Below are positions 14,906 through 36,444 of a stretch of 64,000 nucleotides of DNA, one piece after another; position 1 is the stretch's first letter, and each line of letters starts with the position of its first letter. A program made the position numbers and the translations under genes. The stretch comes from Candidatus Falkowbacteria bacterium (GTDB lineage: Bacteria > Patescibacteriota > Patescibacteriia > UBA11705 > JABHMO01). Location: the NCBI GenBank assembly GCA_018674305.1, contig JABHAL010000015.1:128532-192531 (forward strand), written 5' to 3'. The notes under the pieces are model-generated. The model made no database searches. It saw only the letters and a list, made by a program, of their open reading frames with translations, and had not been told where the DNA came from.

Positions 14906-15862
14906 CTACTTATCCCAACAAAAATTATTCCCGAAATGGCCAAACTCAGCAGTTTGTTCAAATTGAGGCTTTTTCAACTCTAATAAAGTAATAATCCCTT
15001 TAGGAGTTAAATCATAACCTTGTACATTCTCTTTGCGACCATCAATTTCCACAGTCGCCATTACCGGTTCAGCTACTCCAATTGAATAAGCTAAATGGCA
15101 AATAACTTCTTTGGCATTATTTTTTTGTAAATAATCAACAGCAATTTTTCTGGCCATGTAAGCAGCGGAACGATCGACTTTGGACGGATCCTTGCCTGAA
15201 AATGCACCACCTCCGATAGGAATTCGTGGACCATAGTTATCCACAATCAATTTCCGACCAGTTACACCAGCATCTGCCTCAAATCCTCCTTGTGACCAAT
15301 CACCAGCTGGATTAACATAAATTTTAAGGTTTTCACTTACATTTTTGTCTTTTAACCATTCTTCAACCAGCCCCTTCATTTCTTCTGCTCGAGCATGCTG
15401 AAAGCTGGCCACGACAGTTGAAATTAAATTGTTTTCTAATGTAATTTGAGTTTTGCCATCAGTTTTGTATTTAGAAAATAATACTCGACACAAATCACGT
15501 GAAAGCTTTACCTCCAAAGGAATTAATTCCGGAGTTTCACTGCAAGCATATCCAACCATGATTCCCTGGTCACCAGCACCACCCGGATCAACTCCTCGGG
15601 CAATATCTGGAGATTGCTGAACTAAATTGACACTAACTTGATATTGATCTCCAGCAATTCGTTTAGCAATTTTTTCCGCATCAAAAACCGCACCGGAAGT
15701 AATCTCTCCGGTAATTGTAATAACTCCATGCCCCCCCATTGTCTCTACTGCAACCCGTGAATGTGGGTCTTGCGATAAACAAATATCTAAAATAGCATCG
15801 GAAACACGATCACAAATTTTGTCTGGGTGCATTGGTGAAACTGACTCTGCTGTACGTAACAT
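14906..15862 (-). CDS. metK: S-adenosylmethionine synthetase (compact form)
   Basis: ESV..HPDKICD, GAGDQG, GGGAFSGKDPSKVDRSAAY, GHFG. Confidence 0.97.
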   Translation of the reverse strand: MLRTAESVSPMHPDKICDRVSDAILDICLSQDPHSRVAVETMGGHGVITITGEITSGAVFDAEKIAKRIAGDQYQVSVNLVQQSPDIARGVDPGGAGDQGIMVGYACSETPELIPLEVKLSRDLCRVLFSKYKTDGKTQITLENNLISTVVASFQHARAEEMKGLVEEWLKDKNVSENLKIYVNPAGDWSQGGFEADAGVTGRKLIVDNYGPRIPIGGGAFSGKDPSKVDRSAAYMARKIAVDYLQKNNAKEVICHLAYSIGVAEPVMATVEIDGRKENVQGYDLTPKGIITLLELKKPQFEQTAEFGHFGNNFCWDK

Positions 15863-15925: not shown

Positions 15926-16074
15926 TAAAAAATACTCTTTCATCACGAAAAAGTATAATAATTGAATAATTATTTATCTTTCCCGTGCTGGGCTAGAATT
16001 GACACCTTCTTGAATTACCTTCAAGGGTTGTCGACAGGTCATCGGGCTATATCCCTCACTGTACTCTTGATAAA
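15926..16074 (-). promoter_or_regulatory. SAM-I riboswitch (aptamer ~15974-16074) with terminator, upstream of metK
   Basis: Minus strand TTATCAAGAG..GAGGGA..GCCCGATGA..GACAACC..AAGGTGTCAATTC..GAAAGATAA, then hairpin TACTTTTTC..GAAAGAGTA-TTTTT. Confidence 0.92.
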
Positions 16075-16118
16075 TGGTTAAATTGTATATATATAATATT
16101 ACACTAAAATTAATTTTA

Positions 16119-17978: not shown

Positions 17979-18872
17979 TTAAGCCATCTTTCTCAGTTTT
18001 TTTATTCTTTCTTCAATTGGTGGATGGGTTGAAAATAGTTTTTTAACTTTTGTTCCGGAAAAAGGATTTGCAATGTAGAGATGTGCAGTTGCTTTCGAAG
18101 CTCGAGCTAAAGGCTTATTTTCATAAGCAATCTTTTCTAACGCGCTAGCTAACCCTTCTGGATACCTAGTCAAAAGTGAGGCTGAAGCGTCAGCTAAATA
18201 TTCTCTTTTCCGAGAAATAGCAAACTTTATAAGCTGGGCAATTATTGGAGAAAGGACTATAAAAACTAAGCCAATGATTATTAAAGCCGGATGACCACCC
18301 TTATTGCTACGTGAACGACCACGACCACCCCAAATACTTATCCGCATAAACCAATCTGCCAAGATTGCGATTGCACCAACCAAAACCGTTACTAACATCA
18401 TAAAACGAATATCATAATTACCAACGTGAGATAACTCATGAGCAATTACCCCTTCTAACTCTTCATTTTCCAACTTTTCAATTGCTCCCTTGGTAACTGC
18501 GATTGAAGCTAATTCTGGTTTTCGTCCCGTAGCAAAAGCATTAATTGACGGATCATCGATCAAATAAACTTTTGGTGCTGGCAGGCCAGCTGTAATACAA
18601 AGATTTTCTACCATTCGATAAACATATGGATTGTCCGTTTTTTGAATTTCTTTTGCGCCAGAAGCTGACAAGGCTATCTTGTCTCCTTTGAAATATGAAA
18701 CACTGGTCATTAATAATGAAAACCCAACAGCTATAATCATTCCAAGGTACGGAACTTGGCCTTGGCCACCATATATATAATCATAAGCATAGCCAACACC
18801 AAGCAGAACTGCGAAAAAAATCACAATCAAGAACATTGAATTTCTTTTGTTGGAGTCTATCTGGTTGTACAT
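17979..18872 (-). CDS. htpX: M48 zinc metalloprotease HtpX
   Basis: NAFATG, GVIAHELSH, SRKREYLAD, FSTHPP.EERI. Confidence 0.95.
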   Translation of the reverse strand: MYNQIDSNKRNSMFLIVIFFAVLLGVGYAYDYIYGGQGQVPYLGMIIAVGFSLLMTSVSYFKGDKIALSASGAKEIQKTDNPYVYRMVENLCITAGLPAPKVYLIDDPSINAFATGRKPELASIAVTKGAIEKLENEELEGVIAHELSHVGNYDIRFMMLVTVLVGAIAILADWFMRISIWGGRGRSRSNKGGHPALIIIGLVFIVLSPIIAQLIKFAISRKREYLADASASLLTRYPEGLASALEKIAYENKPLARASKATAHLYIANPFSGTKVKKLFSTHPPIEERIKKLRKMA

Positions 18873-18877
18873 ATATT

Positions 18878-19804
18878 TTATTTTTTAACAACAATAACAT
18901 TTCCCTTAATTGTATCAGGAACCTTACGCAATTCCGCTTTGAATCCCTTGTCCTGCAAATATTTTATCCTGGCTGAATCCAGCTTTTCCATTGCCTCTTG
19001 TCCTTTTTTTCGTTTTTCCAAGTCATTACTATTAGTTAAATCTGACTGACGACAAAGTTGTTTCCACTCTTCTTTGTCAATACCATATGGATTGGCATGA
19101 TTCTTGGCCATTCCCTGACAACAGGTCATTAAATACAATTCCGGACTGCCTTCAGATTTCGACCAACTATCAATAATATGATCAGCTAAATCACCACAAG
19201 GATGTTTGGCTACCCAGGTGCCATCAGGAATTTTATCTTTTCTAATATCAAATTGAACAGGTTCAACACTTTGATCCAAAATTTTATTTAACTCTTCTAC
19301 ATAACGAAGCTGATGTGGATTAATGTCCAAAACCTTAGCTGGTTTACCGGTCTTTTCAGATAAAACACGAGCCATATCACCAGCGCCACCAGCAATGTCA
19401 ATAATCTCATCACCAGAAATAGTATCAATTATTTTCGAAAAACCAATCATTTCTCGTTTTTTTCTTTTATAAAATTCTTCTGTTTTTTGGGGGAGAGAAG
19501 TATCACTATACACCTCTTGCTTAAGTTCAGGTACCATAAAATCTAAAAGAATACAGTTTTCACTGGGTGTTACGTTGTGAACATTAAATTTCCCAGACTT
19601 AAGCATCTGCTGAATTTCTTGAGCTCTTTCTGGTGAAAAATCAACAAAAAGCTCCTTCTGCCGTTCCCTATTCAATTCCCCTAAACTTTCCCAAAGTTTA
19701 TTGAGATAAGTATTAAAAACTCTCGCCCTATTTTTCTGGGAATATAATTCGTCTGCAACATGTTCAGCTACGGAGACTGGTAAATTTTGGTTTTCGAATT
19801 TCAT
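18878..19804 (-). CDS. Class I SAM-dependent methyltransferase-domain protein
   Basis: IDIAGGAGD, KHPCGDLAD, MTCC motifs (Methyltransf_32-like). Confidence 0.7.
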   Translation of the reverse strand: MKFENQNLPVSVAEHVADELYSQKNRARVFNTYLNKLWESLGELNRERQKELFVDFSPERAQEIQQMLKSGKFNVHNVTPSENCILLDFMVPELKQEVYSDTSLPQKTEEFYKRKKREMIGFSKIIDTISGDEIIDIAGGAGDMARVLSEKTGKPAKVLDINPHQLRYVEELNKILDQSVEPVQFDIRKDKIPDGTWVAKHPCGDLADHIIDSWSKSEGSPELYLMTCCQGMAKNHANPYGIDKEEWKQLCRQSDLTNSNDLEKRKKGQEAMEKLDSARIKYLQDKGFKAELRKVPDTIKGNVIVVKK

Positions 19805-19814
19805 ACTTAAACTA

Positions 19815-20387
19815 CTAAAATTTAACTTTTACGTTTTCTTTTTCTTTCTCATCGGCTTCAAAAAAATCATACTTTTTAAATCCAATAGCATTAGCAATCA
19901 TATTTGTTGGGAAAACTTGAATTTTGGTATTGAAGTCACGAACATTACCATTGTAAAATCTTCGAGCAGCTTGGATCTTATTTTCAATATCACTCAACTC
20001 ATCTTGCAACTTCGCAAAATTAGCAGAAGCCTTCAGGTCAGGATAACTCTCAGCTACTGCGAACAAGGTTTTTAACGCTCCTGACAGCATGTTTTCGGCC
20101 TTAGCTTGGTCTTCTGGACTAGCATCCTTGTTATCATGTGATCCCATGGCAGCTGTTCGAGCTTCAGTTACTTTTTGTAAAGTTTCTTGTTCGTGCGTCA
20201 TGTAACCTTTAACGGTCTCCATTAGATTTGGAATCAAATCATAACGTCGTTTTAACTGAACATCAATATCTGAAGAAGCCTCGTCCACACGATTACGTAA
20301 ACGAATTAGTCCGTTGTAGACTGCGATTAACCAAACGATAATTACTGCTACAACTGCCAAAATTACATAAATAATTGTTGCTGACAT
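19815..20387 (-). CDS. lemA: LemA family protein
   Basis: YNGL..RN.VDEA..IDVQLKRRYDLIPNL, AE.YPDLKA, ARRFYN. Confidence 0.95.
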   Translation of the reverse strand: MSATIIYVILAVVAVIIVWLIAVYNGLIRLRNRVDEASSDIDVQLKRRYDLIPNLMETVKGYMTHEQETLQKVTEARTAAMGSHDNKDASPEDQAKAENMLSGALKTLFAVAESYPDLKASANFAKLQDELSDIENKIQAARRFYNGNVRDFNTKIQVFPTNMIANAIGFKKYDFFEADEKEKENVKVKF

Positions 20388-20504
20388 AAATTGTTTATTA
20401 TTTATAAAATCAACTAAATTATAGTCTATTATAGCAGAAAAATCAACTTTATTTTGTTTTTATTATAAAAAAAGAGCAAGCCAGTGATGGCTTGCTTTGA
20501 TTGA

Positions 20505-20777
20505 CTACCAACCCCTTCTTTTCTTTAATTTCTTGCGTCGATTTTTTCTAGCTTGCTCTCGATAGGATTCCTTAGCTTTTTCCTGTCGAAGAGCTCTAGC
20601 TTCAACCTTGTTTGGCACATGCTCACGTTTGGTTAATTCAGTCTTAATCTCTACAACTGACAACATTCGACCACCTGGTATCGGCGTATGGCCCTTGTGT
20701 CGTTTTGACCTAGCTTTTTCTAAATAATTCAACAAGACTTTTGTAGGTAAATTTGGTAAATCATATGGATTAGTCAT
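20505..20777 (-). CDS. Small basic hypothetical protein
   Basis: ORF with GGGAGG SD, boxA-like GTTCTTTGAA and a downstream hairpin at ~20475-20497. Confidence 0.7.
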   Translation of the reverse strand: MTNPYDLPNLPTKVLLNYLEKARSKRHKGHTPIPGGRMLSVVEIKTELTKREHVPNKVEARALRQEKAKESYREQARKNRRKKLKKRRGW

Positions 20778-20882
20778 AATAACCTCCCTTATGACAAAGA
20801 TTCAAAGAACGAGCACTAAAGCGTATATGCACTAGTTTATCAAGTTCAATGATTTTAAGCAAATATTATAACTACTGTTCTA

Positions 20883-20911
20883 TTGACAATATACAACCAA
20901 TAAGCTATACT
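20883..20911 (+). promoter_or_regulatory. Sigma70 promoter
   Basis: TTGACA-N17-TATACT. Confidence 0.85.
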
Positions 20912-20917
20912 TTAACC

Positions 20918-21261
20918 TAGGTTAAGAAGTGAAACCTCCGCCACGCGGAGGGGTAACCTAAATTGGTTCCCGACAAACCGATTTAGATTGCTGGTAATAC
21001 CGGAGTGGGTTAGCTCGCCCTCATCATGGCCCTTGACAGCGGTGTTGGTAAATGAATAGCAGTCAAGTCCATTCTACGACTAGCCCTGCTACCAACCGCG
21101 ACCGTCTACAGACTAGGAAATACCTCCGCCAAATTGAATGCGCACAATTTGGTTCCGAATGGATATTGGACAAATATGAAACTGGCGAGAAAATTCATAT
21201 TTGAGAAATATCCAGGTCTAGTCCCTTATTCCGGGGGGTGCGTCAAGCATTTCTTAACCTA
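20918..21261 (+). ncRNA. Unassigned large structured ncRNA (~345 nt, multiple pseudoknots)
   Basis: Terminal helix TAGGTTAAGAAGTG/CATTTCTTAACCTA starts at the predicted TSS. At least 8 internal helices, raised GC, no credible ORF, own terminator. Confidence 0.8.
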
Positions 21262-21263
21262 AA

Positions 21264-21304
21264 AGCGCGCCTTGTGCATCATTACGGGGCGCGCTATTTT
21301 TTTT
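21264..21304 (+). terminator. Intrinsic terminator of the ncRNA
   Basis: AGCGCGCC..GGCGCGCT-ATTTTTTTT. Confidence 0.85.
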
Positions 21305-21356
21305 GCAAACAAAAAAAAACAACTATTAAAGTTGTTTCTTTTATACAGTTCAAATT

Positions 21357-23078
21357 CTAACCAACACTTTTCATATATTTTAAGTCTTCCTTCTTAATCA
21401 TAAATTTACCATCTTTAGCTAGCCTCTTTGCTAGTATTTCATCTTTCTGATCCTCATTAACTAACGACTGAGCAATCGTCTTGGCCTTTTCTCCTATTTC
21501 TGCATCATTTTCATTATTAGCAGCCTCGGTAACTCCCCATAGATGCCAACCTATTTTATTCAGTGTTTTTTGGAAATTATCTTGCAATCCAGCAAGATCC
21601 ACACCCCATTCATTTTTCACCTCACCACGGTCAATTTTTGCTTGAATGACCTCAATTTCATTTTGTTTCAATGCTATTATTTCTTCTAACGCAACAATGT
21701 ATGAATTTGCATCACTATATCCCATTTGTGATTCCCAATGACCCTCATCAGAGGCTAAACGAAAAGTGTGTTTTTTATCTTTTGAAGATAAAGATTGATA
21801 TATTTGCTGAGCATATGACCAAGAATCAAAATTATTTCGTTCAGGTAAATCCAGATTATATATATCACCTTCTAACACATCTTTTATTAATTCATTTTTC
21901 TGACTTTCACTTAATTCAAAATCATTATTGACAATATCCTCTATTTTCATTGGTTTCTTATTGTACTTTACTCTTTTCCTATCAACTTCTTCAAGTTCTT
22001 CATTCACAATTTTTTCAGTCACAACTTCCTCAACCAAAAAATATTCACCTGTCTGAGCATCTCTTATATATACTGGCATGCCCAGGGTTTTGCCTTCTTT
22101 CAATATTTCATCCATCAAATTTTTATTACCATGCTCAGTTAAGGCTGAATTCTCCGCTATTTTAACATCAATATCTGAATCAAAAAACAAAGCTGCAATT
22201 TGTGGTTTTTTTACTAAAATTTCATTATGTCCAGACTCCGATTTATTAATAGCTTGAGAGATTTCTTCTTTAGGATTTTCAGTATTAAATACATTACTTC
22301 GTTCACCTTCAGATACTTGTGAAACACTATCTCTCGCCATTGCTGCCCCAATCTCACCCCCTTTCAATAAAACACCAAAAGAAAAAAAGGATTGATCCTT
22401 GACTTCATTCTTTTGCTTATCAAGCCGTACACTTGCAGTTGACAAATTAGGCTCCATTGCCAATGTTGCATGAAACATATCCTGCCATCTAACCCCACGC
22501 TTCATAACAGAAACCTGTCCCGGAGTAGTCATGCTCAAAAAACTGTGATTTAATACAGCATTATGTTCTTTACATACCTCCATAACATCCTTGGACTTTT
22601 TCTCACCTTCCCAAGTCTCCAGAGCCTCAGCTTGATCTTTATAAAATTCACTTATCAAACTTTCAGCTTTTTCAAGTTCGACTTTACTGTCAGCCTCTTT
22701 TTGCAAATCTTTATACATTTGCCACAACCCCTCAAACTCTCTTTGTAAATCTTCAACTTTTCTCCTATCCCCTTGGATCTCATTCTGCAAAGCCCTAATC
22801 TCAAATAAATTAAATAATTTAGCAAGTGTTCTTTGCTGTTTTGACTCTAATTCACTCTCCAATTCTTTCAACCTATCGATTACTTCCTTAAACTCCAATT
22901 GTTTTTGTTTAATTTTCTCCTGTAATCGTACTGTTTTTTCATTGATATCTGCTTGGCGTTCAGAAAACTGAGCTTCCAGCGCAGCTTGTTGCGCCTCCAC
23001 TTCTAATTTTTCCTCGGGATTTTTTTCCTGAACAAAATTTCTAAGCTTTTGATTATTTACTGGTGATTCTTTTCTCAT
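21357..23078 (-). CDS. Hypothetical protein with N-terminal coiled coil
   Basis: 573-aa ORF with an E/K/Q-rich N-terminus. Confidence 0.75.
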   Translation of the reverse strand: MRKESPVNNQKLRNFVQEKNPEEKLEVEAQQAALEAQFSERQADINEKTVRLQEKIKQKQLEFKEVIDRLKELESELESKQQRTLAKLFNLFEIRALQNEIQGDRRKVEDLQREFEGLWQMYKDLQKEADSKVELEKAESLISEFYKDQAEALETWEGEKKSKDVMEVCKEHNAVLNHSFLSMTTPGQVSVMKRGVRWQDMFHATLAMEPNLSTASVRLDKQKNEVKDQSFFSFGVLLKGGEIGAAMARDSVSQVSEGERSNVFNTENPKEEISQAINKSESGHNEILVKKPQIAALFFDSDIDVKIAENSALTEHGNKNLMDEILKEGKTLGMPVYIRDAQTGEYFLVEEVVTEKIVNEELEEVDRKRVKYNKKPMKIEDIVNNDFELSESQKNELIKDVLEGDIYNLDLPERNNFDSWSYAQQIYQSLSSKDKKHTFRLASDEGHWESQMGYSDANSYIVALEEIIALKQNEIEVIQAKIDRGEVKNEWGVDLAGLQDNFQKTLNKIGWHLWGVTEAANNENDAEIGEKAKTIAQSLVNEDQKDEILAKRLAKDGKFMIKKEDLKYMKSVG

Positions 23079-23105
23079 AAATTTGCAAACACAAAACTTC
23101 GAAAA

Positions 23106-25091
23106 TTATTTAAAATTGGCTCGAAACACTCCATCAAAATTTTCCGGCGGATTAACAAGATATTCTTTTAAGCGTTCAACATAAATTTCGATTGGCCGAT
23201 CTTCTGGGTAGGCTTCTGCCAACGACGAAAATAACTTCAAAGCTTCCGGCCATTCTTGATTTAAATATTGCTGTGTTGCTAGTCCAAATTTTTCTAATAA
23301 TTCAGCGTACTTTTTTTTGTCCGCTAATTCACCCAAAACTTGATAAATTTTAATGCCTGTTTGCTTCCCTTTTACAGCAACGGTATCTAAATATCTAAAC
23401 ACAAATTTGTTATTCAATTCAGCTTTTGTTTTTTCACTGGCCAAAATACCAACTCCATAATATTTAGTTAAACTTTCCAGGCGAGATGCTAAGTTCACAT
23501 CATCACCAATGGCCGTGTAATCAAAACGCTGATGTGATCCCAAATTTCCAACCACCACTTCGCCCGTATTTAACCCAATTCCAATCTTTATCTCAGGCAT
23601 CCCTCGGATTTTCATTTTTTTATTAAATTTTACTAATTCACTTTGCATTAATAATGCTGAAGTTAACCCATCTTGGCGATGATTTTCATTATGCAAAGGT
23701 GAATTCCAAAAAGCCATAACCGCATCACCAATAAACTTATCCACAACCCCGTTATTATCCATAATCACAGTTGTCATTTCGGTTAAATAATCGTTTAAGT
23801 AATGTACAAGCTCCTCGGGCTTCATTTTTTCTGACAATGAAGTAAACCCACGAATATCAGAAAACAAAATAGTTAATTCTCGCCTTTCTCCGCCGAGATT
23901 CAATTTTTCTGGTTTAGCAATTAGCTCGTCAACAACTTCCTTAGCTACATATTGGGAAAAACCAGCACGAATTTTTTGTTTTTCTTGCGATTCTAATAAA
24001 TATCGAATCACAAAAGCAGTAGCAAAAATTAAAATTATTAACAAACAAGGATATAAAATCGAAAATAACCAACTGAAGACAAAGGCTACAACTACACCCA
24101 GTAAATATAAAACGATTAACAATACCATGCCCAACAATGAGTAATACCAACGCCAAGCAAAAGCTACAAAAGCACTAATTATTCCTAAAAGTATAAATAG
24201 ACCTAAATACAAAATTTGATTATCAACTTGCTGAACATATGCCGACTGTAAATATGACTCAATCAAGTTAGCCTGAATTTCCACCCCAGACATAGCCTCA
24301 AACTTAGTCGAAGCCGTGAAATATTGATCATGTAAATTGTCTGCAGTAGCACCGACTAAAACAATCTTGCCTTGCAAAACTTGACTATCAAAATCCTGAT
24401 TGTAAACATCTATGAAAGAATATTTTTGAAAAGTATTTTCCGGACCAAAGAATTTAATGCGAAATAATCCGAACTGATCAAAATCAAATTTTTCAGGATA
24501 TAAACTATCAACTTCATTCCACAAGCCAGCTTTTTGTAGAACACCAACAAAAAACGGCGTCACCATTTCATCTTGATATTTAACAAAATTAGGTGTACGT
24601 CGAATCTGCCCATCCTGATCTGTTATCAAAGAGACATGCCCAACAGAGGACCGTTCTTGAATCTCTGATATTGGCCACAAAGTTTCAGTGAACTGAGGAT
24701 CAGCACCTAAAGTCAATTTTAACTCACCCTCCATTGGAAAAACTACTTTGTTCCCCTCCTGCAAAACTGACAACAATTCATTATCTCCACCGCTCGACTC
24801 ACTAAAAGTCATATCATAACCAATAGCTTTCACTCCAGACTTACTCAATTTATCAATCATTTGAGTATGCAAACTTCTTGACCAAGGCCACTCACCAAAA
24901 GACTGAATTGATTTATCATCAATTCCGATCAGAACAATTTGATTAGAAATTTCCTCTTGAACAAATAATTTATCTTTTAACTGTTCATCAAATAAATTAA
25001 AAACCTTAAAATGCAATAGACCGTACATCAAGCCAACACAAACTACAGCTGTTAAAATTGCGCTCAGAATTTTAGTTTGTTTTTTTAACAT
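23106..25091 (-). CDS. CHASE2-domain class III adenylate/guanylate cyclase
   Basis: IDDKS..GEWPWSR (CHASE2), 3 TM, FSDIRGFT, DKFIGDAVMAFW, YTAIGDDVNLASRLE, VKGK. Confidence 0.93.
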   Translation of the reverse strand: MLKKQTKILSAILTAVVCVGLMYGLLHFKVFNLFDEQLKDKLFVQEEISNQIVLIGIDDKSIQSFGEWPWSRSLHTQMIDKLSKSGVKAIGYDMTFSESSGGDNELLSVLQEGNKVVFPMEGELKLTLGADPQFTETLWPISEIQERSSVGHVSLITDQDGQIRRTPNFVKYQDEMVTPFFVGVLQKAGLWNEVDSLYPEKFDFDQFGLFRIKFFGPENTFQKYSFIDVYNQDFDSQVLQGKIVLVGATADNLHDQYFTASTKFEAMSGVEIQANLIESYLQSAYVQQVDNQILYLGLFILLGIISAFVAFAWRWYYSLLGMVLLIVLYLLGVVVAFVFSWLFSILYPCLLIILIFATAFVIRYLLESQEKQKIRAGFSQYVAKEVVDELIAKPEKLNLGGERRELTILFSDIRGFTSLSEKMKPEELVHYLNDYLTEMTTVIMDNNGVVDKFIGDAVMAFWNSPLHNENHRQDGLTSALLMQSELVKFNKKMKIRGMPEIKIGIGLNTGEVVVGNLGSHQRFDYTAIGDDVNLASRLESLTKYYGVGILASEKTKAELNNKFVFRYLDTVAVKGKQTGIKIYQVLGELADKKKYAELLEKFGLATQQYLNQEWPEALKLFSSLAEAYPEDRPIEIYVERLKEYLVNPPENFDGVFRANFK

Positions 25092-26875: not shown

Positions 26876-27379
26876 CTAAACTTCATTATTTCGATCACAA
26901 AACCAAGCTTTTGGGTTGTTACAAATATAACAACGAGCATGTTCCAGTTCGGATTGGTCTCGTAACACGCGGTCGTAAAATGATTTTTGCCAATTAAAAT
27001 CAAAACAATTTAGACCATATCGAATTTGTTTGGTACAAACATTTTTGAAGGAATTTATGATTTTGGAAATTAATCCATAATTATTTCGTGTAGGGATCGG
27101 GCAATGCCCGTTCCCTACGTTTTTTATATATATTATACCGTGCATATGATTCGGCATTACAATATATTTATCCAATGAAACATTTTCATAATACCGTGGA
27201 ATTAATTTCCAAAATTCATTTACCACATCACCACAAACATTCAAAATCATTTTTTCATCAACAACATCACCAAACCAATTTATTCTATTCTTCGTACAAA
27301 TCGTTAAATAATAAAAACCGGGCAATGAATAATCAAACGCCCGACAACGGTTTAATTTTCGTTCTGGACCATTGTACAT
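26876..27379 (-). mobile_element. REP-associated tyrosine transposase (RAYT / Y1 family)
   Basis: DYS.PG.Y.LTICT, VMPNHMHGII (HUH), WQKSFYD.V.R, YI..NP..W. Confidence 0.88.
27090..27118. repeat. REP-like palindrome inside the RAYT gene
   Basis: GTAGGGATCGGGCA-A-TGCCCGTTCCCTAC, an imperfect palindrome with GTAG ends. Confidence 0.7.
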
Positions 27380-27568: not shown

Positions 27569-30500
27569 TTAAACGCGCTGTCTATTCCTCAGACCAAGCA
27601 AGATACCTCCTAAAAGTAGAAACAGGACAATTCCTGTTGCTTGTCCGTTCTGAGATGTAGAACATCCGTCTGAACTTGAACACCAGTTTCTATCGCTACT
27701 GACAGAAAACTCTTTCTTGGCAGTAACTGTCTGGTCATTATTTTTCACCGTAATTTTAACTTCATGTTTCCCAGTGCTACCACACTCAAGGAAAACATAA
27801 GCTTCAACGTGATAATGATCATCCACCCACATAAAATTACTGTTGATATCTGTATCGACAGATAAAGAACCAAAGATATAGGAGAACTGTTCACTCTCTG
27901 GAACATTATCAGACCCATACAGATCAAAGCTTATGACCATATGAGTAGCTTCTTGAGCGTTATTAATCGACAAATTTTCTATGGCTAAATCACCCTCTGC
28001 TTTAGGCTTATTACCACAAGAAGTGATTATAACTTGTTTTGTCGTGCTAGTAGTAATATTGTCGATGTTTATATTCATTGTCACTTGATAAGTTCCCGGC
28101 TGATCATAAATATGAGTTGCTTTCAATTGCAAAGCCCCATTACCTATAAGACCAGCTGAACAAGCAACTTGTTCAAAACCCTCAAGTCCAAAGTTCACAT
28201 AGCAACTGACAACCTGACTTGGAACCGCATTGTAGATAAGCCATTCCGACTTAACATCACAGAATCCCATATTCACCACATAGTAATTCTGTCCCTTGAC
28301 AACGGGGTCACCTGTCGGAACTTCACCTTCAACGCATTCTCCGTCTTGACAAAACTCATTCTGAGCACAGGGTTGTTTGATGGCCACCTTTTCCCCATCT
28401 TCACTTATCCACCAAACATCATTCTCAAAACAACCAAGTTCGAACACAACGGAGCAGTCCATTTCCAGGCAGTACTCAATTAATCCTGCCGGCAAAAGCC
28501 CATGTTTACCCAACATCTTCATTAAGTCTTCGTCTTTTACCTTGTCGAGCATTTTTTGAAGAACTAATTTTGCATCTTTGATCAACAAGTTTGCTTCTGC
28601 CGTTTTTGCATTGAAGGCAGACGTTCCCAAAGAACTTTTGATCTCATTAAGTAATGCTGTATCCTTGGAAATCATGGCCTGAGCAAGACCCTGTGTATTA
28701 ATATCAGCTAAATCATCAAAAGAGTCTCTGACTACTAATTTCACTGAATCTCGATATTTTGTTTTCCAGCCCTGAACTCCAAACATATTTTGAGTTGGAT
28801 GACCGCCACCCCAAAGATCTGCTAGCACCTCCAAGATTGCAGCTTGTGCACCCTCTTTGGCAATAGGAATGCCCAGCTCATAAACTAAAATAGCTTTAGA
28901 CTTTGCATGCATATACTCATGCATAACAATAGAAGTTAAAACTGCTTTCACATCAGCCAGATAAGTAGCTATAGGAACTGCTGAATCTGCAGAGCCGTAT
29001 AACAACTCCTTCAATCGTCCTTCATGTACTGTGAAAATAATCATTTCATGGAACTCGTCTACATTATAAGCAGCTGGAATAGCTTCATCTATTCCATTGA
29101 AAAGCTCCTCGCTTTTTTTGAACCAATTATACTCACCTAGACTAGCCAAGGGATCAGCAGTAACTGCAAGAGCTTCAAACCCTTTAACGCTTGGGGCTTG
29201 ACCATCAATTGCCTCTAGTGCCTTTTTAAGATTTCCACTACTAATCACTTCACGCATCACCAATCTATCAACTTCTGAAAATTTCATGGAAAAAAGAGAT
29301 TTGTAATTATAGAATGGATATTTTTTAACTAGAGCAACAGCATCACCTCTAACACTTTCCAGAACAAGTGGGTCTTTGATTTTCTTTACGTGAATTTTTC
29401 CACTTCTAGCAAAGACCACAAACTTTTCAGTTTTTCCACTTGTTAAATACTTGATGTATCGCAATCCATGTTTTCCAAGAAAGACAAGTCCCTTGATGGC
29501 ATTGTAACCAAGGTCAACAAATGCCAAGATTGCCACAACATAAGCTAGTTTTGGATACGTATCTTCTAGCAGAATAAAACCTGCGGTCTCACCACAAACA
29601 CCCAGAAGAGCAATCCCAATTGGAGCAGTGGCTACCTCAAATATTCCTGCAACAATCAAGAAGACTGAAGCTCCATAACACGAACCATACAATAAAATCT
29701 CATCAAAGTTGTCCATCATCCAGTCAAGACCAAAGAGACCGATATCAAGCACATCGTCCATCACATACAGCCCATTCTCGTCCCACCATTCAAAACACGT
29801 AGCTGATGTATCCGTTTCTGGACTGAGACACGGTGATTCCGTCAGATTAACGATAGAATCAATCATCCCCATCATTTCAATGATTTTTTCTTGCGGGATT
29901 ACGTTCAAGTCTATCACATAAGCATCATTATCATTGAGGAAAATATTCGTTTTGACCAACAACTCCAGTGAATCTCCACCATGAATTGCTTGCCAACTGA
30001 ACTCGAATTCATCCCCCTCAAAGAGGACAAAGTCCTGACTTAACTCCTCTTCTGCGTCTACGAGTAATATTTCAACCTCAATGTAATTCGGAACATTTTC
30101 TGCACAAAATGCAGAAAATGTAATTTCAAGTAAGGCAATGTCACCCTCAAAAACTGCAGTAGCGACAGAGCCGTCTTCATGTTTCCACTGCGCGCTTATA
30201 ATTTCACACGGAGATGGATTATAAACACAATCACCAAACACACAAGAGTAAAATTCCGGACACAGATTCACATCACCCCAGTCACAACACTGTCCATCGC
30301 ACTCACATTCGCGATAACCAAAACCAAAACACTCTTTTTCGTTTGGTTCGCAATTGCTTTCACAACAAGGAGAAATACATTCCCCTGCCTGGCAACCACA
30401 TGAGCAAGGATCAGCGTCCAAATAGTAACAATCCAAATCATTTGAGGAGCACTTTCCATTACTCAACACCGAACTGTAATTTGATGAACATACATTTGGT

Positions 30501-32110
30501 AATTCAGTGCAATCATCAATAATTTCAGTCGTTACATCACAACCATTTTTCCAAACTAGATTATCATTTTCGCAAGTCTGATAATCCTTGGTGGGCAAAC
30601 AGTCGTTAACACAATAACCGTCACTACAGACCTTGTTTGATCCACACTGATAAGTTTGCTTTTGTAAGCATCCGTCCTTGAGTAGACAAGTCCACTTTTG
30701 GGACGGGCTATTACAACCAACCTCATTCAGCTCGCAGATTTCATCGCAACAAGGCTCAAGACAGGAATCATTCTGACAACCACAGTCACACTCTATAACT
30801 TCAAGTGTCACAGGTGACCAGTCATCCTGACATGCACCATTCTGGCAAATCTCCTGCATCTGATTTTGAATAACATGCTCATCGCCTGATTTGCAGATTG
30901 AATAACTTGAACCATTCTGTGTTCCGTCACAAGGATCAATTTGATGGTGTGGCGAATTATTCGAATCATAGCACCAGATTCCACCCAAATGACATTTTTC
31001 ACTTGCACAACTGTTGTAACAATTAGTTTTGCAACTACCGTTTAGACAGCCACAATCACAATCAGTTTCAACAGCGTAATAGCAATCCTTGTCTTGCGGA
31101 GAGCAAAAACCGTTGCTTAAAACATTCCCGGCAGCATTACAAACATCAGGTTGTTCATCACAGTCTTCAATTATGCTAGTTTGGACATTGCAAGAATTTT
31201 TCCAAACTAATTTACCAGCCACACAAAATTTATTTGCTTGTACTGGCAAGCAGTCTGAAACACAATTACCCGCGTTACAAACCTTACCAACCCCACAATT
31301 AACATAATCTTTTTCGTAACAACCGTTTGTATTGTTAAAATCACAGGTCCACTTTTGAGTATTATTAGCGTTACAGCCTACTTGAGCGGAAGAGCAATTA
31401 CTCTGACAGGACTGGCATTTATCATTGTAACAATTACATGATTCATAATGCCATTCCAAACAAGTATCGCTGTCAAAATTGCCACAAGTTTTGAGCATAT
31501 TACTGCTCATACATTCCTTGTCGCCATAATCATCACACTCATCATCACAGAGCAACACACACTCACCATCGTCACATTCTGTGCCTAGTTCACAATTAGC
31601 CCAGTCTTTTTCATAGCAACCAGTATTGGAATTATAATCACAGTCCCACACTTTGCTACCAGAATTATTACAACCATCACTGCCTGACGAACATTCATCA
31701 TCACATTCAATACATTCACCGTTACTGCAACCATTATCGCAATAATCAATTACCTGCATACCTGAATAAACTGCCTCTTGTTTGCAAGTAGTATTACTAC
31801 AATACGGTTCATAATCATAGGAATCATACTGAAGCCAATTACCATCGCAATAGGCCTGAGAGTCATAGCCACCAAAGGCTGTACACTCTTCATCGACATG
31901 ATCCCATTCGTTATCAGAATTAATACACCAAATATCTCCATTCTTGCATTGTCGATCAACACAAGTATGAAAACATTTAAAATAACTACAATACCCAGAA
32001 CAGCAAGAACCACCAGTAGCACACCAGCCACCGTTACCTGTGCAAGCCTCAGCTTGATTAGCAAAGCCCAAACAAAACAACAAAACAATAGCAAAAATTG
32101 CATTTCTCAT
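27569..32110 (-). CDS. 1513-aa Cys-rich exported protein with central HExxH domain, PKD-like domain and MYXO-CTERM-like tail
   Basis: Signal peptide (AEA), ~600 aa of Cys-rich repeats, hydrophobic segment, MHEYMH..E, HIYDQPGTYQV, C-terminal DGCS..hydrophobic..RNRQR. Confidence 0.85.
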   Translation of the reverse strand: MRNAIFAIVLLFCLGFANQAEACTGNGGWCATGGSCCSGYCSYFKCFHTCVDRQCKNGDIWCINSDNEWDHVDEECTAFGGYDSQAYCDGNWLQYDSYDYEPYCSNTTCKQEAVYSGMQVIDYCDNGCSNGECIECDDECSSGSDGCNNSGSKVWDCDYNSNTGCYEKDWANCELGTECDDGECVLLCDDECDDYGDKECMSSNMLKTCGNFDSDTCLEWHYESCNCYNDKCQSCQSNCSSAQVGCNANNTQKWTCDFNNTNGCYEKDYVNCGVGKVCNAGNCVSDCLPVQANKFCVAGKLVWKNSCNVQTSIIEDCDEQPDVCNAAGNVLSNGFCSPQDKDCYYAVETDCDCGCLNGSCKTNCYNSCASEKCHLGGIWCYDSNNSPHHQIDPCDGTQNGSSYSICKSGDEHVIQNQMQEICQNGACQDDWSPVTLEVIECDCGCQNDSCLEPCCDEICELNEVGCNSPSQKWTCLLKDGCLQKQTYQCGSNKVCSDGYCVNDCLPTKDYQTCENDNLVWKNGCDVTTEIIDDCTELPNVCSSNYSSVLSNGKCSSNDLDCYYLDADPCSCGCQAGECISPCCESNCEPNEKECFGFGYRECECDGQCCDWGDVNLCPEFYSCVFGDCVYNPSPCEIISAQWKHEDGSVATAVFEGDIALLEITFSAFCAENVPNYIEVEILLVDAEEELSQDFVLFEGDEFEFSWQAIHGGDSLELLVKTNIFLNDNDAYVIDLNVIPQEKIIEMMGMIDSIVNLTESPCLSPETDTSATCFEWWDENGLYVMDDVLDIGLFGLDWMMDNFDEILLYGSCYGASVFLIVAGIFEVATAPIGIALLGVCGETAGFILLEDTYPKLAYVVAILAFVDLGYNAIKGLVFLGKHGLRYIKYLTSGKTEKFVVFARSGKIHVKKIKDPLVLESVRGDAVALVKKYPFYNYKSLFSMKFSEVDRLVMREVISSGNLKKALEAIDGQAPSVKGFEALAVTADPLASLGEYNWFKKSEELFNGIDEAIPAAYNVDEFHEMIIFTVHEGRLKELLYGSADSAVPIATYLADVKAVLTSIVMHEYMHAKSKAILVYELGIPIAKEGAQAAILEVLADLWGGGHPTQNMFGVQGWKTKYRDSVKLVVRDSFDDLADINTQGLAQAMISKDTALLNEIKSSLGTSAFNAKTAEANLLIKDAKLVLQKMLDKVKDEDLMKMLGKHGLLPAGLIEYCLEMDCSVVFELGCFENDVWWISEDGEKVAIKQPCAQNEFCQDGECVEGEVPTGDPVVKGQNYYVVNMGFCDVKSEWLIYNAVPSQVVSCYVNFGLEGFEQVACSAGLIGNGALQLKATHIYDQPGTYQVTMNINIDNITTSTTKQVIITSCGNKPKAEGDLAIENLSINNAQEATHMVISFDLYGSDNVPESEQFSYIFGSLSVDTDINSNFMWVDDHYHVEAYVFLECGSTGKHEVKITVKNNDQTVTAKKEFSVSSDRNWCSSSDGCSTSQNGQATGIVLFLLLGGILLGLRNRQRV

Positions 32111-36051: not shown

Positions 36052-36378
36052 TGGCTCTGCGAGTCGGACTCGAACCGACGACCTACTGGTTACACTTATC
36101 CAAGGATTTCTCCAGGGCGTGGACTATATCATCACCATAGCAAATGCTTTAGGCGCGAGGCGCTTCCACCTTGATGTAAAAATCAAAGTGTACTCCTAAA
36201 AAGGATAGTCTCTGAACCTTCCCCAACTAATGTTAGGGCTTGGCTGCGGATTAGCATATCACAATTGACTTAGCCTTCCCGACAATTCACCTCGTTATTC
36301 ACCCCAATGTTTCCAAAGGGGGCTGCGTTATATTTTTGTGTACACAGCCAGTTGCTCTACCAACTGAGCTATCGCAGA
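36052..36378 (-). tRNA. tRNA-Asn(GTT) split by a group I intron (exons 36344-36378 and 36052-36092)
   Basis: Joined exons: TCTGCGATAGCTCAGTTGGTAGAGCAACTGGCTGT|TAACCAGTAGGTCGTCGGTTCGAGTCCGACTCGCAGAGCCA. Full cloverleaf with encoded CCA. Confidence 0.93.
36093..36343 (-). ncRNA. Group I self-splicing intron (251 nt, no ORF)
   Basis: P AATTGTCGGGAA, Q AATCCGCAGC, R GTTCAGAGACTA, S ATGATATAGTCC. The 5' exon ends in U and the intron ends in G. Confidence 0.92.
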
Positions 36379-36388
36379 ATAATGTTTT

Positions 36389-36444
36389 TACCAACTGCGT
36401 GTCCGCCGAAGCTTTAGCGTAGGCGGGAGCTATCGCAGAATAAT
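36389..36444 (-). repeat. Duplicate of the tRNA 5' end interrupted by a 30-nt palindromic element
   Basis: taccaactg[cgtgtccgccgaagctttagcgtaggcggg]agctatcgcagaataat versus 36358-36383. Confidence 0.8.

Follow-up and report, generated by a model that had tools for sequence, protein, structure and literature searches.

A stand-alone, pseudoknotted RNA without an Rfam match in Candidatus Falkowbacteria and other Patescibacteria

Large ornate stand-alone RNAs are rare in bacteria, and those with an assigned role do core chemistry or form essential particles. What kind of RNA, then, is encoded in a 580-bp gap between two minus-strand open reading frames (ORFs) of a Candidatus Falkowbacteria genome, where an earlier note had proposed a large structured RNA? 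We addressed this question in the window, i.e. the whole 64,000-nucleotide stretch analyzed (contig JABHAL010000015.1), in the source genome (1.28 Mb, rated 99.9% complete; genomes of the phylum span 0.4-2.1 Mb) and in related genomes.

As presented in Table 1, the locus is a real, stand-alone non-coding RNA gene with its own promoter and terminator and no open frame. The promoter, the closing helix P1 and the terminator claimed in the earlier note were all borne out. Ending at 20911, the promoter was the best-scoring of 7 sites (3.2 expected), and transcription is predicted to start at about 20918-20919. The RNA has a GC content of 47% compared to 37% for the window, and is present in the source genome as one copy. 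Its folding z-score was far beyond chance with the terminator (-6.35) and without it (-7.11); z-scores were weak in three homologs (-0.6 to -1.2). For all ten members of the family described below, we observed 1 to 9 stop codons in every sense frame. A TTG-type promoter was found by regular expression in 7/10 members, and a terminator hairpin with a U-run in all 9 that have downstream sequence. The predicted start site is spanned by a perfect palindrome of 14 bp (20912-20925) that occurs nowhere else in the genome; it could be an operator, but is not kept in the homologs. GUUCUUU, which we take to resemble an antitermination boxA, occurs at or just 5′ of P1 in four of the ten members (G147, G296, G060 and G378). 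A reading of the gene as a MITE was rejected, the TTAACCTA repeat not being kept in the homologs.

Table 1. Positions in the window of the RNA gene, its flanking ORFs and the predicted helices
Feature	Position	Strand	Remarks
Promoter TTGACA-17-TATACT	20883-20911	+	Sigma70-type; 11/12 consensus positions
Structured ncRNA	20918-21261	+	344 nt, first to last base of P1
Intrinsic terminator	21264-21304	+	13-bp hairpin (21264-95) plus T-run
Divergent 90-aa ORF	20505-20777	-	No Pfam family
Convergent 573-aa ORF	21357-23078	-	No Pfam family
P1	20918-20931 with 21248-21261	+	14/14 pairs; closes the RNA
P2 hairpin	20935-20951	+	After conserved AA(G/A) linker; in 10/10 members by local folding
P3	20952-20992	+	Variable hairpin; missing from three short members
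Pz	20993-21031 (20993-95/21029-31)	+	3 bp
Pa 5′ strand	21000-21006 with 21228-21234	+	Long-range pseudoknot; after conserved AAU(A/U) at 20996-99
Pb 5′ strand	21032-21037 with 21242-21247	+	3′ strand continues directly into P1
Pc-Pd domain	21039-21099	+	Pc 21039-48/21092-99; A-rich bulge about 21049-56; Pd 21057-62/21086-91
Four-way junction	21100-21218	+	Pk 21100-03/21215-18; Pg 21104-13; Ph/Pi 21116-56; Pj 21160-21214
PL stem-loop	21219-21241	+	CCY/GGG stem; loop bears Pa 3′ strand

The region is represented in 19 sequencing runs. Three of these, stemming from two studies, are metatranscriptomes, and their shares are small. Contigs assembled from these three runs span 20930-21143 (depth 40), 20930-21104 and 21007-21248. 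Across the 6 kb from 18000 to 24000, the well-matching contigs of the RNA runs fall solely inside the RNA gene, in line with the transcription that the earlier note had proposed; the neighbouring genes gave one 36-base partial match, at 23706, in one run, and a DNA run covered all 30 bins of the same stretch. This evidence consists of assembled contigs, which may include DNA and give neither strand, true ends nor level, and with such cover the uncovered neighbouring genes cannot serve to rank expression. The contig ends at 20930 (two studies) and 21248 (one contig) are the inner ends of P1, a weak hint of reverse-transcription stops at a formed P1, or of processing.

Homologs were beyond the reach of BLAST, which found none in 60 relatives and only short chance matches in 400 genomes of the class (29 such loci were checked; best nhmmer E 0.06). 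By contrast, iterated models found nine homologs in the same phylum, and the ten members are 38-69% identical. A one-sequence covariance model led to G003, of the same genus (E 3e-5), and a two-sequence model to G147, of another family (E 4e-10). A three-sequence profile then added G013, G296, G060 and G169, and a 3′ motif G176, G378 and G462, the last from another class and recovered again by a model (E 3e-13). Weak matches were dropped as coding or chance throughout: 2 for the one-sequence model, those in 10 genomes for the two-sequence model, 3, 2 and 4 in successive searches with the three-sequence profile, and 3 in the model search that re-found G462. Pattern matches to the 3′ motif were also dropped, in 4 of 5 genomes in one search and 10 of 16 in another.

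Occurrence is patchy: we found the RNA in at least 1 of 4 other genomes of the genus, at least 2 of 15 of the family, at least 7 of the 400-genome class sample and at least 1 of 376 genomes of other classes, all lower bounds, since 2/10 members escape the 3′ motif and only part of the class sample was searched with the profile. In a tree of the RNAs, a long form (7 members) separated from a short form (3 members, about 265-290 nt) with 99% support, the members overall spanning about 265-350 nt. A GTDB-wide scan with a pattern built on the first three members returned 9 loci, 7 of them chance matches and 2 known members; this pattern is unable to match most later members, so the scan does not show absence from other phyla. 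Pattern scans of IMG/VR returned 48 loci and no member, and BLAST against phages and plasmids no true member. A loose pattern gave at least 120 loci in metagenomes; none of the 80 matches listed scored with model R1, nor did any of the metagenome loci rescored with later profiles. We infer an RNA class scattered through Patescibacteria.

Covariation among the members is strong, as the earlier note had expected of a genuine structured RNA. The comparison predicts a fold in which three multi-helix junctions stack on one another, held in place by a single long-range pseudoknot, Pa. In this model, the outer junction (P2, P3, Pz and Pb) is closed by P1, the second one (Pc, Pk and PL) by Pb, and the four-way one (Pg, Ph and Pj) by Pk. 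Pa joins the loop closed by Pz, where the Pa 5′ strand lies together with AAUA and a variable hairpin, to the loop of PL, tying a 5′ loop to the 3′ end. A closing helix is present in 10/10 members, the inner 5 bp of P1 pairing in 44 of 50 cases. Pb pairs in 60/60, with two-sided changes at 4 of its 6 positions, and Pa in 55/60 with compensatory changes. Pz pairs in 29/30 and uses six pair types, compared to a shuffled mean of 18.6, a value as high being reached in 0 of 20000 shuffles. For the remaining helices, the counts were 39/40 (outer Pc and Pk), 30/30 (Pg), 24/30 (Ph) and 69/70 (Pj). These counts keep out-of-register rows (G060 in P1, G462 in Pa) and a misplaced G003 row in Pg. Best complementarity near fixed anchors served to place the 5′ strand in Pa, Pb, Pc and Pj; Pz and Pk were placed from anchors alone. 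Strand-swap shuffles gave p values from 0.02 (Pk) to below 0.0001, on ten sequences and with kinship ignored. The PL stem is inferred: its three invariant CCY/GGG pairs (30/30) show no two-sided change and its 7-layer stem pairs no better than shuffles do (p 0.84).

A sequence-only alignment of the seven long members was enough for RNAalifold to recover Pa, Pc, Pd, Pk, Pg and Pj. Once Pb was included, the paired share of the 310 cells was 92.9%, compared to 79.8% in shuffles and 31-46% with slid partners, and 26 of 45 pairs showed two-sided changes. Pb reached 78.6% in the sequence-only alignment because two rows are out of register there. The Pc-Pd domain is a simple hairpin in 3/10 members, the A-rich bulge and Pd being confined to the long form. 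Conserved unpaired residues are AA(G/A) after P1, AAU(A/U) before Pa, AAAG after Pb (7/10 members) and, further in, the U(A/G) and GAA linkers of the four-way junction and the purine-rich loop of Pj. The 3′ motifs GAAUUCC and GGGUCUG occur in 7/10 members and are altered in G000 (this copy), G003 and G147. A GGC/GCC mini-pseudoknot into Pd was rejected by eye, fitting three members and not the others.

All the helices proposed in the earlier note can be drawn on the single sequence, and several survive comparison: P1, the 20935-51 hairpin, GCGG..TTGG/CCAA..CCGC, TGGATATT/AATATCCA and 7 bp of CCGGAGT/ATTCCGG. However, four of its pairings are not conserved and are peculiar to this copy. CTTGAC keeps only 2-4 of its 6 pairs with GTCAAG at 21062-67 in six long homologs, its conserved partner being the other GTCAAG, at 21242-47. 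GACTAG/CTAGTC keeps 0-5 of 6 pairs in nine homologs and overlaps two covarying helices, and neither the CTCGCC/GGCGAG pseudoknot nor GCGCAC/GTGCGT has a conserved counterpart. The pseudoknot map was thus partly wrong: 21039-50/21090-99 is a real helix but a nested one, and the sole supported pseudoknot is formed by a helix listed there as ordinary.

We then compared the RNA with described families. Rfam 15 gave no match over the RNA body, and at E up to 10 only nine weak matches, which all start at or after 21206 and are centred on the terminator region; over the RNA body of the ten members, no match was observed at E up to 5-10. Elsewhere in the window, Rfam matched only two elements. One is a SAM-I riboswitch (15971-16076, minus strand, E 8e-14) upstream of an ORF at 14906-15862 that reads by eye as a SAM synthetase. 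The other is a group I intron (about 36055-36390, minus strand; Rfam 36100-36353) that splits a tRNA gene in the anticodon loop; joined by eye, its exons give anticodon GUU (tRNA-Asn), a tRNA that ARAGORN misses. Of the housekeeping RNAs that the earlier note expected elsewhere in the genome, RNase P RNA (contig C16) and tmRNA (contig C4) were found, and SRP RNA (RF01854) gave no match. The RNA is not the host rnpB, a separate RF00010 match being present in 9/10 hosts (the tenth genome is 86% complete). In G147, the RNase P match (C65, 4436-5221) covers 786 nt, roughly double the normal size, which suggests a large insertion.

Further comparisons were negative. ARAGORN found no tmRNA in the window or the nine member loci, and the RNA has neither tRNA-like ends nor a tag frame. 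Its branched, pseudoknotted fold differs from the rod with central bubble of 6S RNA or Ms1, which gave no Rfam match; RF00013 matched nothing elsewhere in the source genome. Motifs for the R and S elements of the group I P7 guanosine site were found in 0/10 members. A group I resemblance was rejected, as GACUA/UAGUC is not a conserved helix and the Rfam group I match lies elsewhere in the window. A group II domain V motif, including permuted forms, was found in 0/10 members by a crude test, again without an Rfam match.

OLE, ROOL and GOLLD are likewise elaborately folded RNAs of bacteria, built of multi-stem junctions and pseudoknots; they are abundant, and some are non-essential (PMC12286853 and PMC5737381). 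Compared with these RNAs (580-830 nt), ours is about half the size or less, without Rfam match or conserved partner gene, and is located neither in phages nor by tRNA islands (one tRNA lies 4 kb from one member). For raiA motif RNA (RF03072), no match was found in the source genome at E up to 10 or in the nine homolog loci. Literature searches gave no description of the RNA, which could sit unnamed in the cluster database or supplements of bioRxiv 10.64898/2026.10.21.760802, whose main text mentions neither Patescibacteria nor CPR, or in subscription papers. The family and its architecture are absent from Rfam, and the family is new, not another raiA or OLE member, within the already known category of large ornate RNAs. 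Taken together, the lack of an Rfam match, the presence of rnpB and ssrA elsewhere, RNA-library contigs confined to the gene and covariation support the earlier view that this is a large structured RNA not yet described, akin in spirit to raiA, OLE and ROOL.

The genomic context varies by lineage, with rarA, Nudix, O-antigen ligase/DoxX, dCTP deaminase, AHSA1, mscL/khpA and nucleotidase/kinase genes as neighbours, and no conserved neighbour gene was found among the members. The downstream gene is convergent in 6/9 members, this copy included; the three co-directional ones (Nudix, dCTP deaminase and a gene without assignment) are unrelated. A neighbourhood with lemA, htpX and a giant Cys-rich gene is common to G000 and G003, whose RNAs are 54% identical, and G004 lacks the RNA at the syntenic position. 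We also rejected a link to the divergent 90-aa ORF, since its one homolog, in G004, stands without an adjacent RNA and the G003 RNA adjoins rarA. In agreement with the earlier note, the scan of flanking genes (8 in the window and 16 around homologs, several without a Pfam family) revealed no reverse transcriptase or nuclease beside any member, and no transposase; RVT_1 was not found in the source genome. Nor were uL30, TROVE/Ro60 and Ffh, including its M domain; uL30 and Ffh M-domain losses are linked to CPR.

Several other features of these genomes were recorded. In one of the ten cases, G462 (L275, 3097-3999), the RNA gene and khpA are arranged tail to tail, close to rpsP and trmD. Directly upstream of the G147 member is a second RNA gene with its own promoter and terminator, about 170 nt long (L270, 6860-7030, minus strand). 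Its product folds as an irregular rod, the closing helix of which has its first ten or so bases in common with that member; it gave no Rfam match, had no homolog among the loci examined and is possibly a 6S-like RNA. The giant cysteine-rich proteins (window 27569-32110, 1513 aa; L184 672-5705, 1677 aa) look secreted and have a hydrophobic C-terminal tail, the G003 one without a Pfam family. A Y1/IS200-like transposase gene, probably REP-associated (window 26876-27379), lies 5.6 kb from the RNA, with no link seen. In the source genome, the 16S rRNA 3′ end (C16, about 90919-90990) is GGAAACAACUCCUUU, a variant keeping the CUCCU anti-Shine-Dalgarno core.

What could such an RNA do? A riboswitch or other cis-regulatory leader is barely credible: the complex fold does end in a terminator, with whose 5′ arm 21235-43 can pair in this copy, but the RNA is not a leader, since most downstream genes face it and the co-directional ones are unrelated. 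That it is a very diverged member of a described family is highly improbable, and for Rfam 15 this reading is largely refuted. Rfam models are poor in Patescibacteria, and the RNase P of the source genome falls under the cut-off; even so, that sub-cut-off match has an E of 7e-27, far from the silence of the ten RNA bodies. A regulator pairing with the ribosome-binding sites of mRNAs through an unpaired CUCC, as a decoy of the 16S 3′ end, would suit the CUC or CUCC found in the Ph-Pi region of 9/10 members and the CUCCU kept by the host 16S end. However, this element is 3-5 nt long, can pair internally with GGAG/GAG next to Pj and is lost in G378, the member with the shortest Pj, and a 345-nt scaffold far exceeds the need; we consider this reading very unlikely. 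A selfish or mobile RNA, or a mobile-element remnant served in trans by its protein (of omega-RNA, retron or intron-like type), is decidedly unlikely, if less so. The patchy distribution, the varied insertion sites and an RNA tree that leaves G013 apart from the same-family G000 and G003, at a fork that the tree does not resolve, agree with it. Against it stand the single copy in the source genome, the neighbourhood shared by G000 and G003 at 54% RNA identity, phage, plasmid and IMG/VR searches that gave no true member, and no transposase, reverse transcriptase or nuclease among the flanking genes scanned. HEARO/omega RNA is also structured and of similar length (about 340 nt; a 343-nt example is given in PMC12286853), but no IscB/IsrB/TnpB-type gene lies beside any member and no Rfam match was found.

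The strongest competitor is a ribozyme that would work in trans on another RNA and may be a distant paralog resembling RNase P, with the pseudoknot core as active site and Pc-Pd as substrate recognition. The RNA has the size of RNase P RNA type A (RF00010), its own promoter, closed ends, conserved junction residues, a long-range crossing helix and an optional distal domain. In RNase P, P4 runs into P1, as Pb does here. There are also faint sequence echoes: AGGAAUAC before Pa in three members and UCUGGCU before P1 in seven recall GAGGAAAGUCC and CGGCUUA of the hosts' own rnpB. In contrast, the P4 motifs GAAAGUCC and YCGGCUUA with its bulged U, both present in the two host rnpB genes examined, were each found in 0/10 members, and the 10-member profile misses five RNase P loci as well as the group I intron of the window. 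The crossing helix varies freely, Pb changes sequence freely without a bulged U, and the two echoes fall on different helices. Moreover, the RNA is patchy rather than universal and co-exists with canonical rnpB in 9/10 hosts, and its 3′ motifs are altered in three members. The ribozyme was therefore placed second, with size, junction conservation and RNase P echoes in its favour and every test of a defining RNase P residue failed; we regard it as unlikely, yet worth keeping in view. A new class of large, free-standing, trans-acting ribozymes of RNase P size, possibly remote paralogs, which a few of the most reduced bacteria would retain for processing an RNA substrate and which would bear an optional substrate-recognition domain, is a doubtful proposition in the same way. 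RNAs that combine complex junctions with a pseudoknot are often catalysts or ligand binders (PMC5737381).

The reading that we rank first, though it could as readily prove wrong as right, is an abundant RNA that acts in trans, is dispensable to the cell and binds a partner through a rigid core, as in raiA or OLE. The RNA would act in trans since downstream genes are mostly convergent and neighbours differ in every lineage, and would be dispensable given its patchy occurrence in genus, family and class and its absence at the G004 syntenic site. Binding is favoured over chemistry because the best-conserved 3′ motifs are altered in 3/10 members, including this copy, with pairing kept; this tolerance, together with dispensability, places non-catalytic partner binding ahead. 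In the mechanism that we propose, the housekeeping sigma factor would drive constitutive synthesis, and the paired ends would protect the RNA from nucleases and let it accumulate. The pseudoknot and the stacked helices (P1/Pb/Pz and Pc/Pk/Pj) would form a compact rigid core displaying a few conserved unpaired residues (AAG, AAUA, AAAG, UA/GAA and GAAUUCC/GGGUCUG). This surface may bind a protein or RNA partner, making the RNA a dispensable ribonucleoprotein scaffold or regulator, with the Pc-Pd domain as a probable optional add-on.

For partner binding, raiA offers a precedent. As described in PMC12968392, raiA is an abundant trans-acting RNA in ribonucleoprotein form, bound non-specifically by KhpA/KhpB. 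Our RNA shares its architecture: a stand-alone gene, trans action as proposed here, closure by a 5′-3′ helix P1, multi-way junctions around a pseudoknot core and optional peripheral stems that define subtypes in raiA. Relative to that description, it is longer (about 265-350 nt compared to about 200), belongs to a different phylum and has one supported pseudoknot instead of two. Its P1 is continuous and sequence-variable, unlike the three-part raiA P1 with its conserved GU and GGU bulges, and the UUAGACGUAA-type conserved linker between PK1 and P6 occurs in 0/10 members.

Overall, these results describe a fold unlike any Rfam family. Structure and activity can be tested directly in vitro, with no need for host culture, given the covariation model, the short and long natural forms and a size that cryo-EM can handle. 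The organism, whose 1.28-Mb genome yielded neither an SRP protein nor a 6S RNA in our searches, devotes a near-consensus promoter to this 345-nt RNA.
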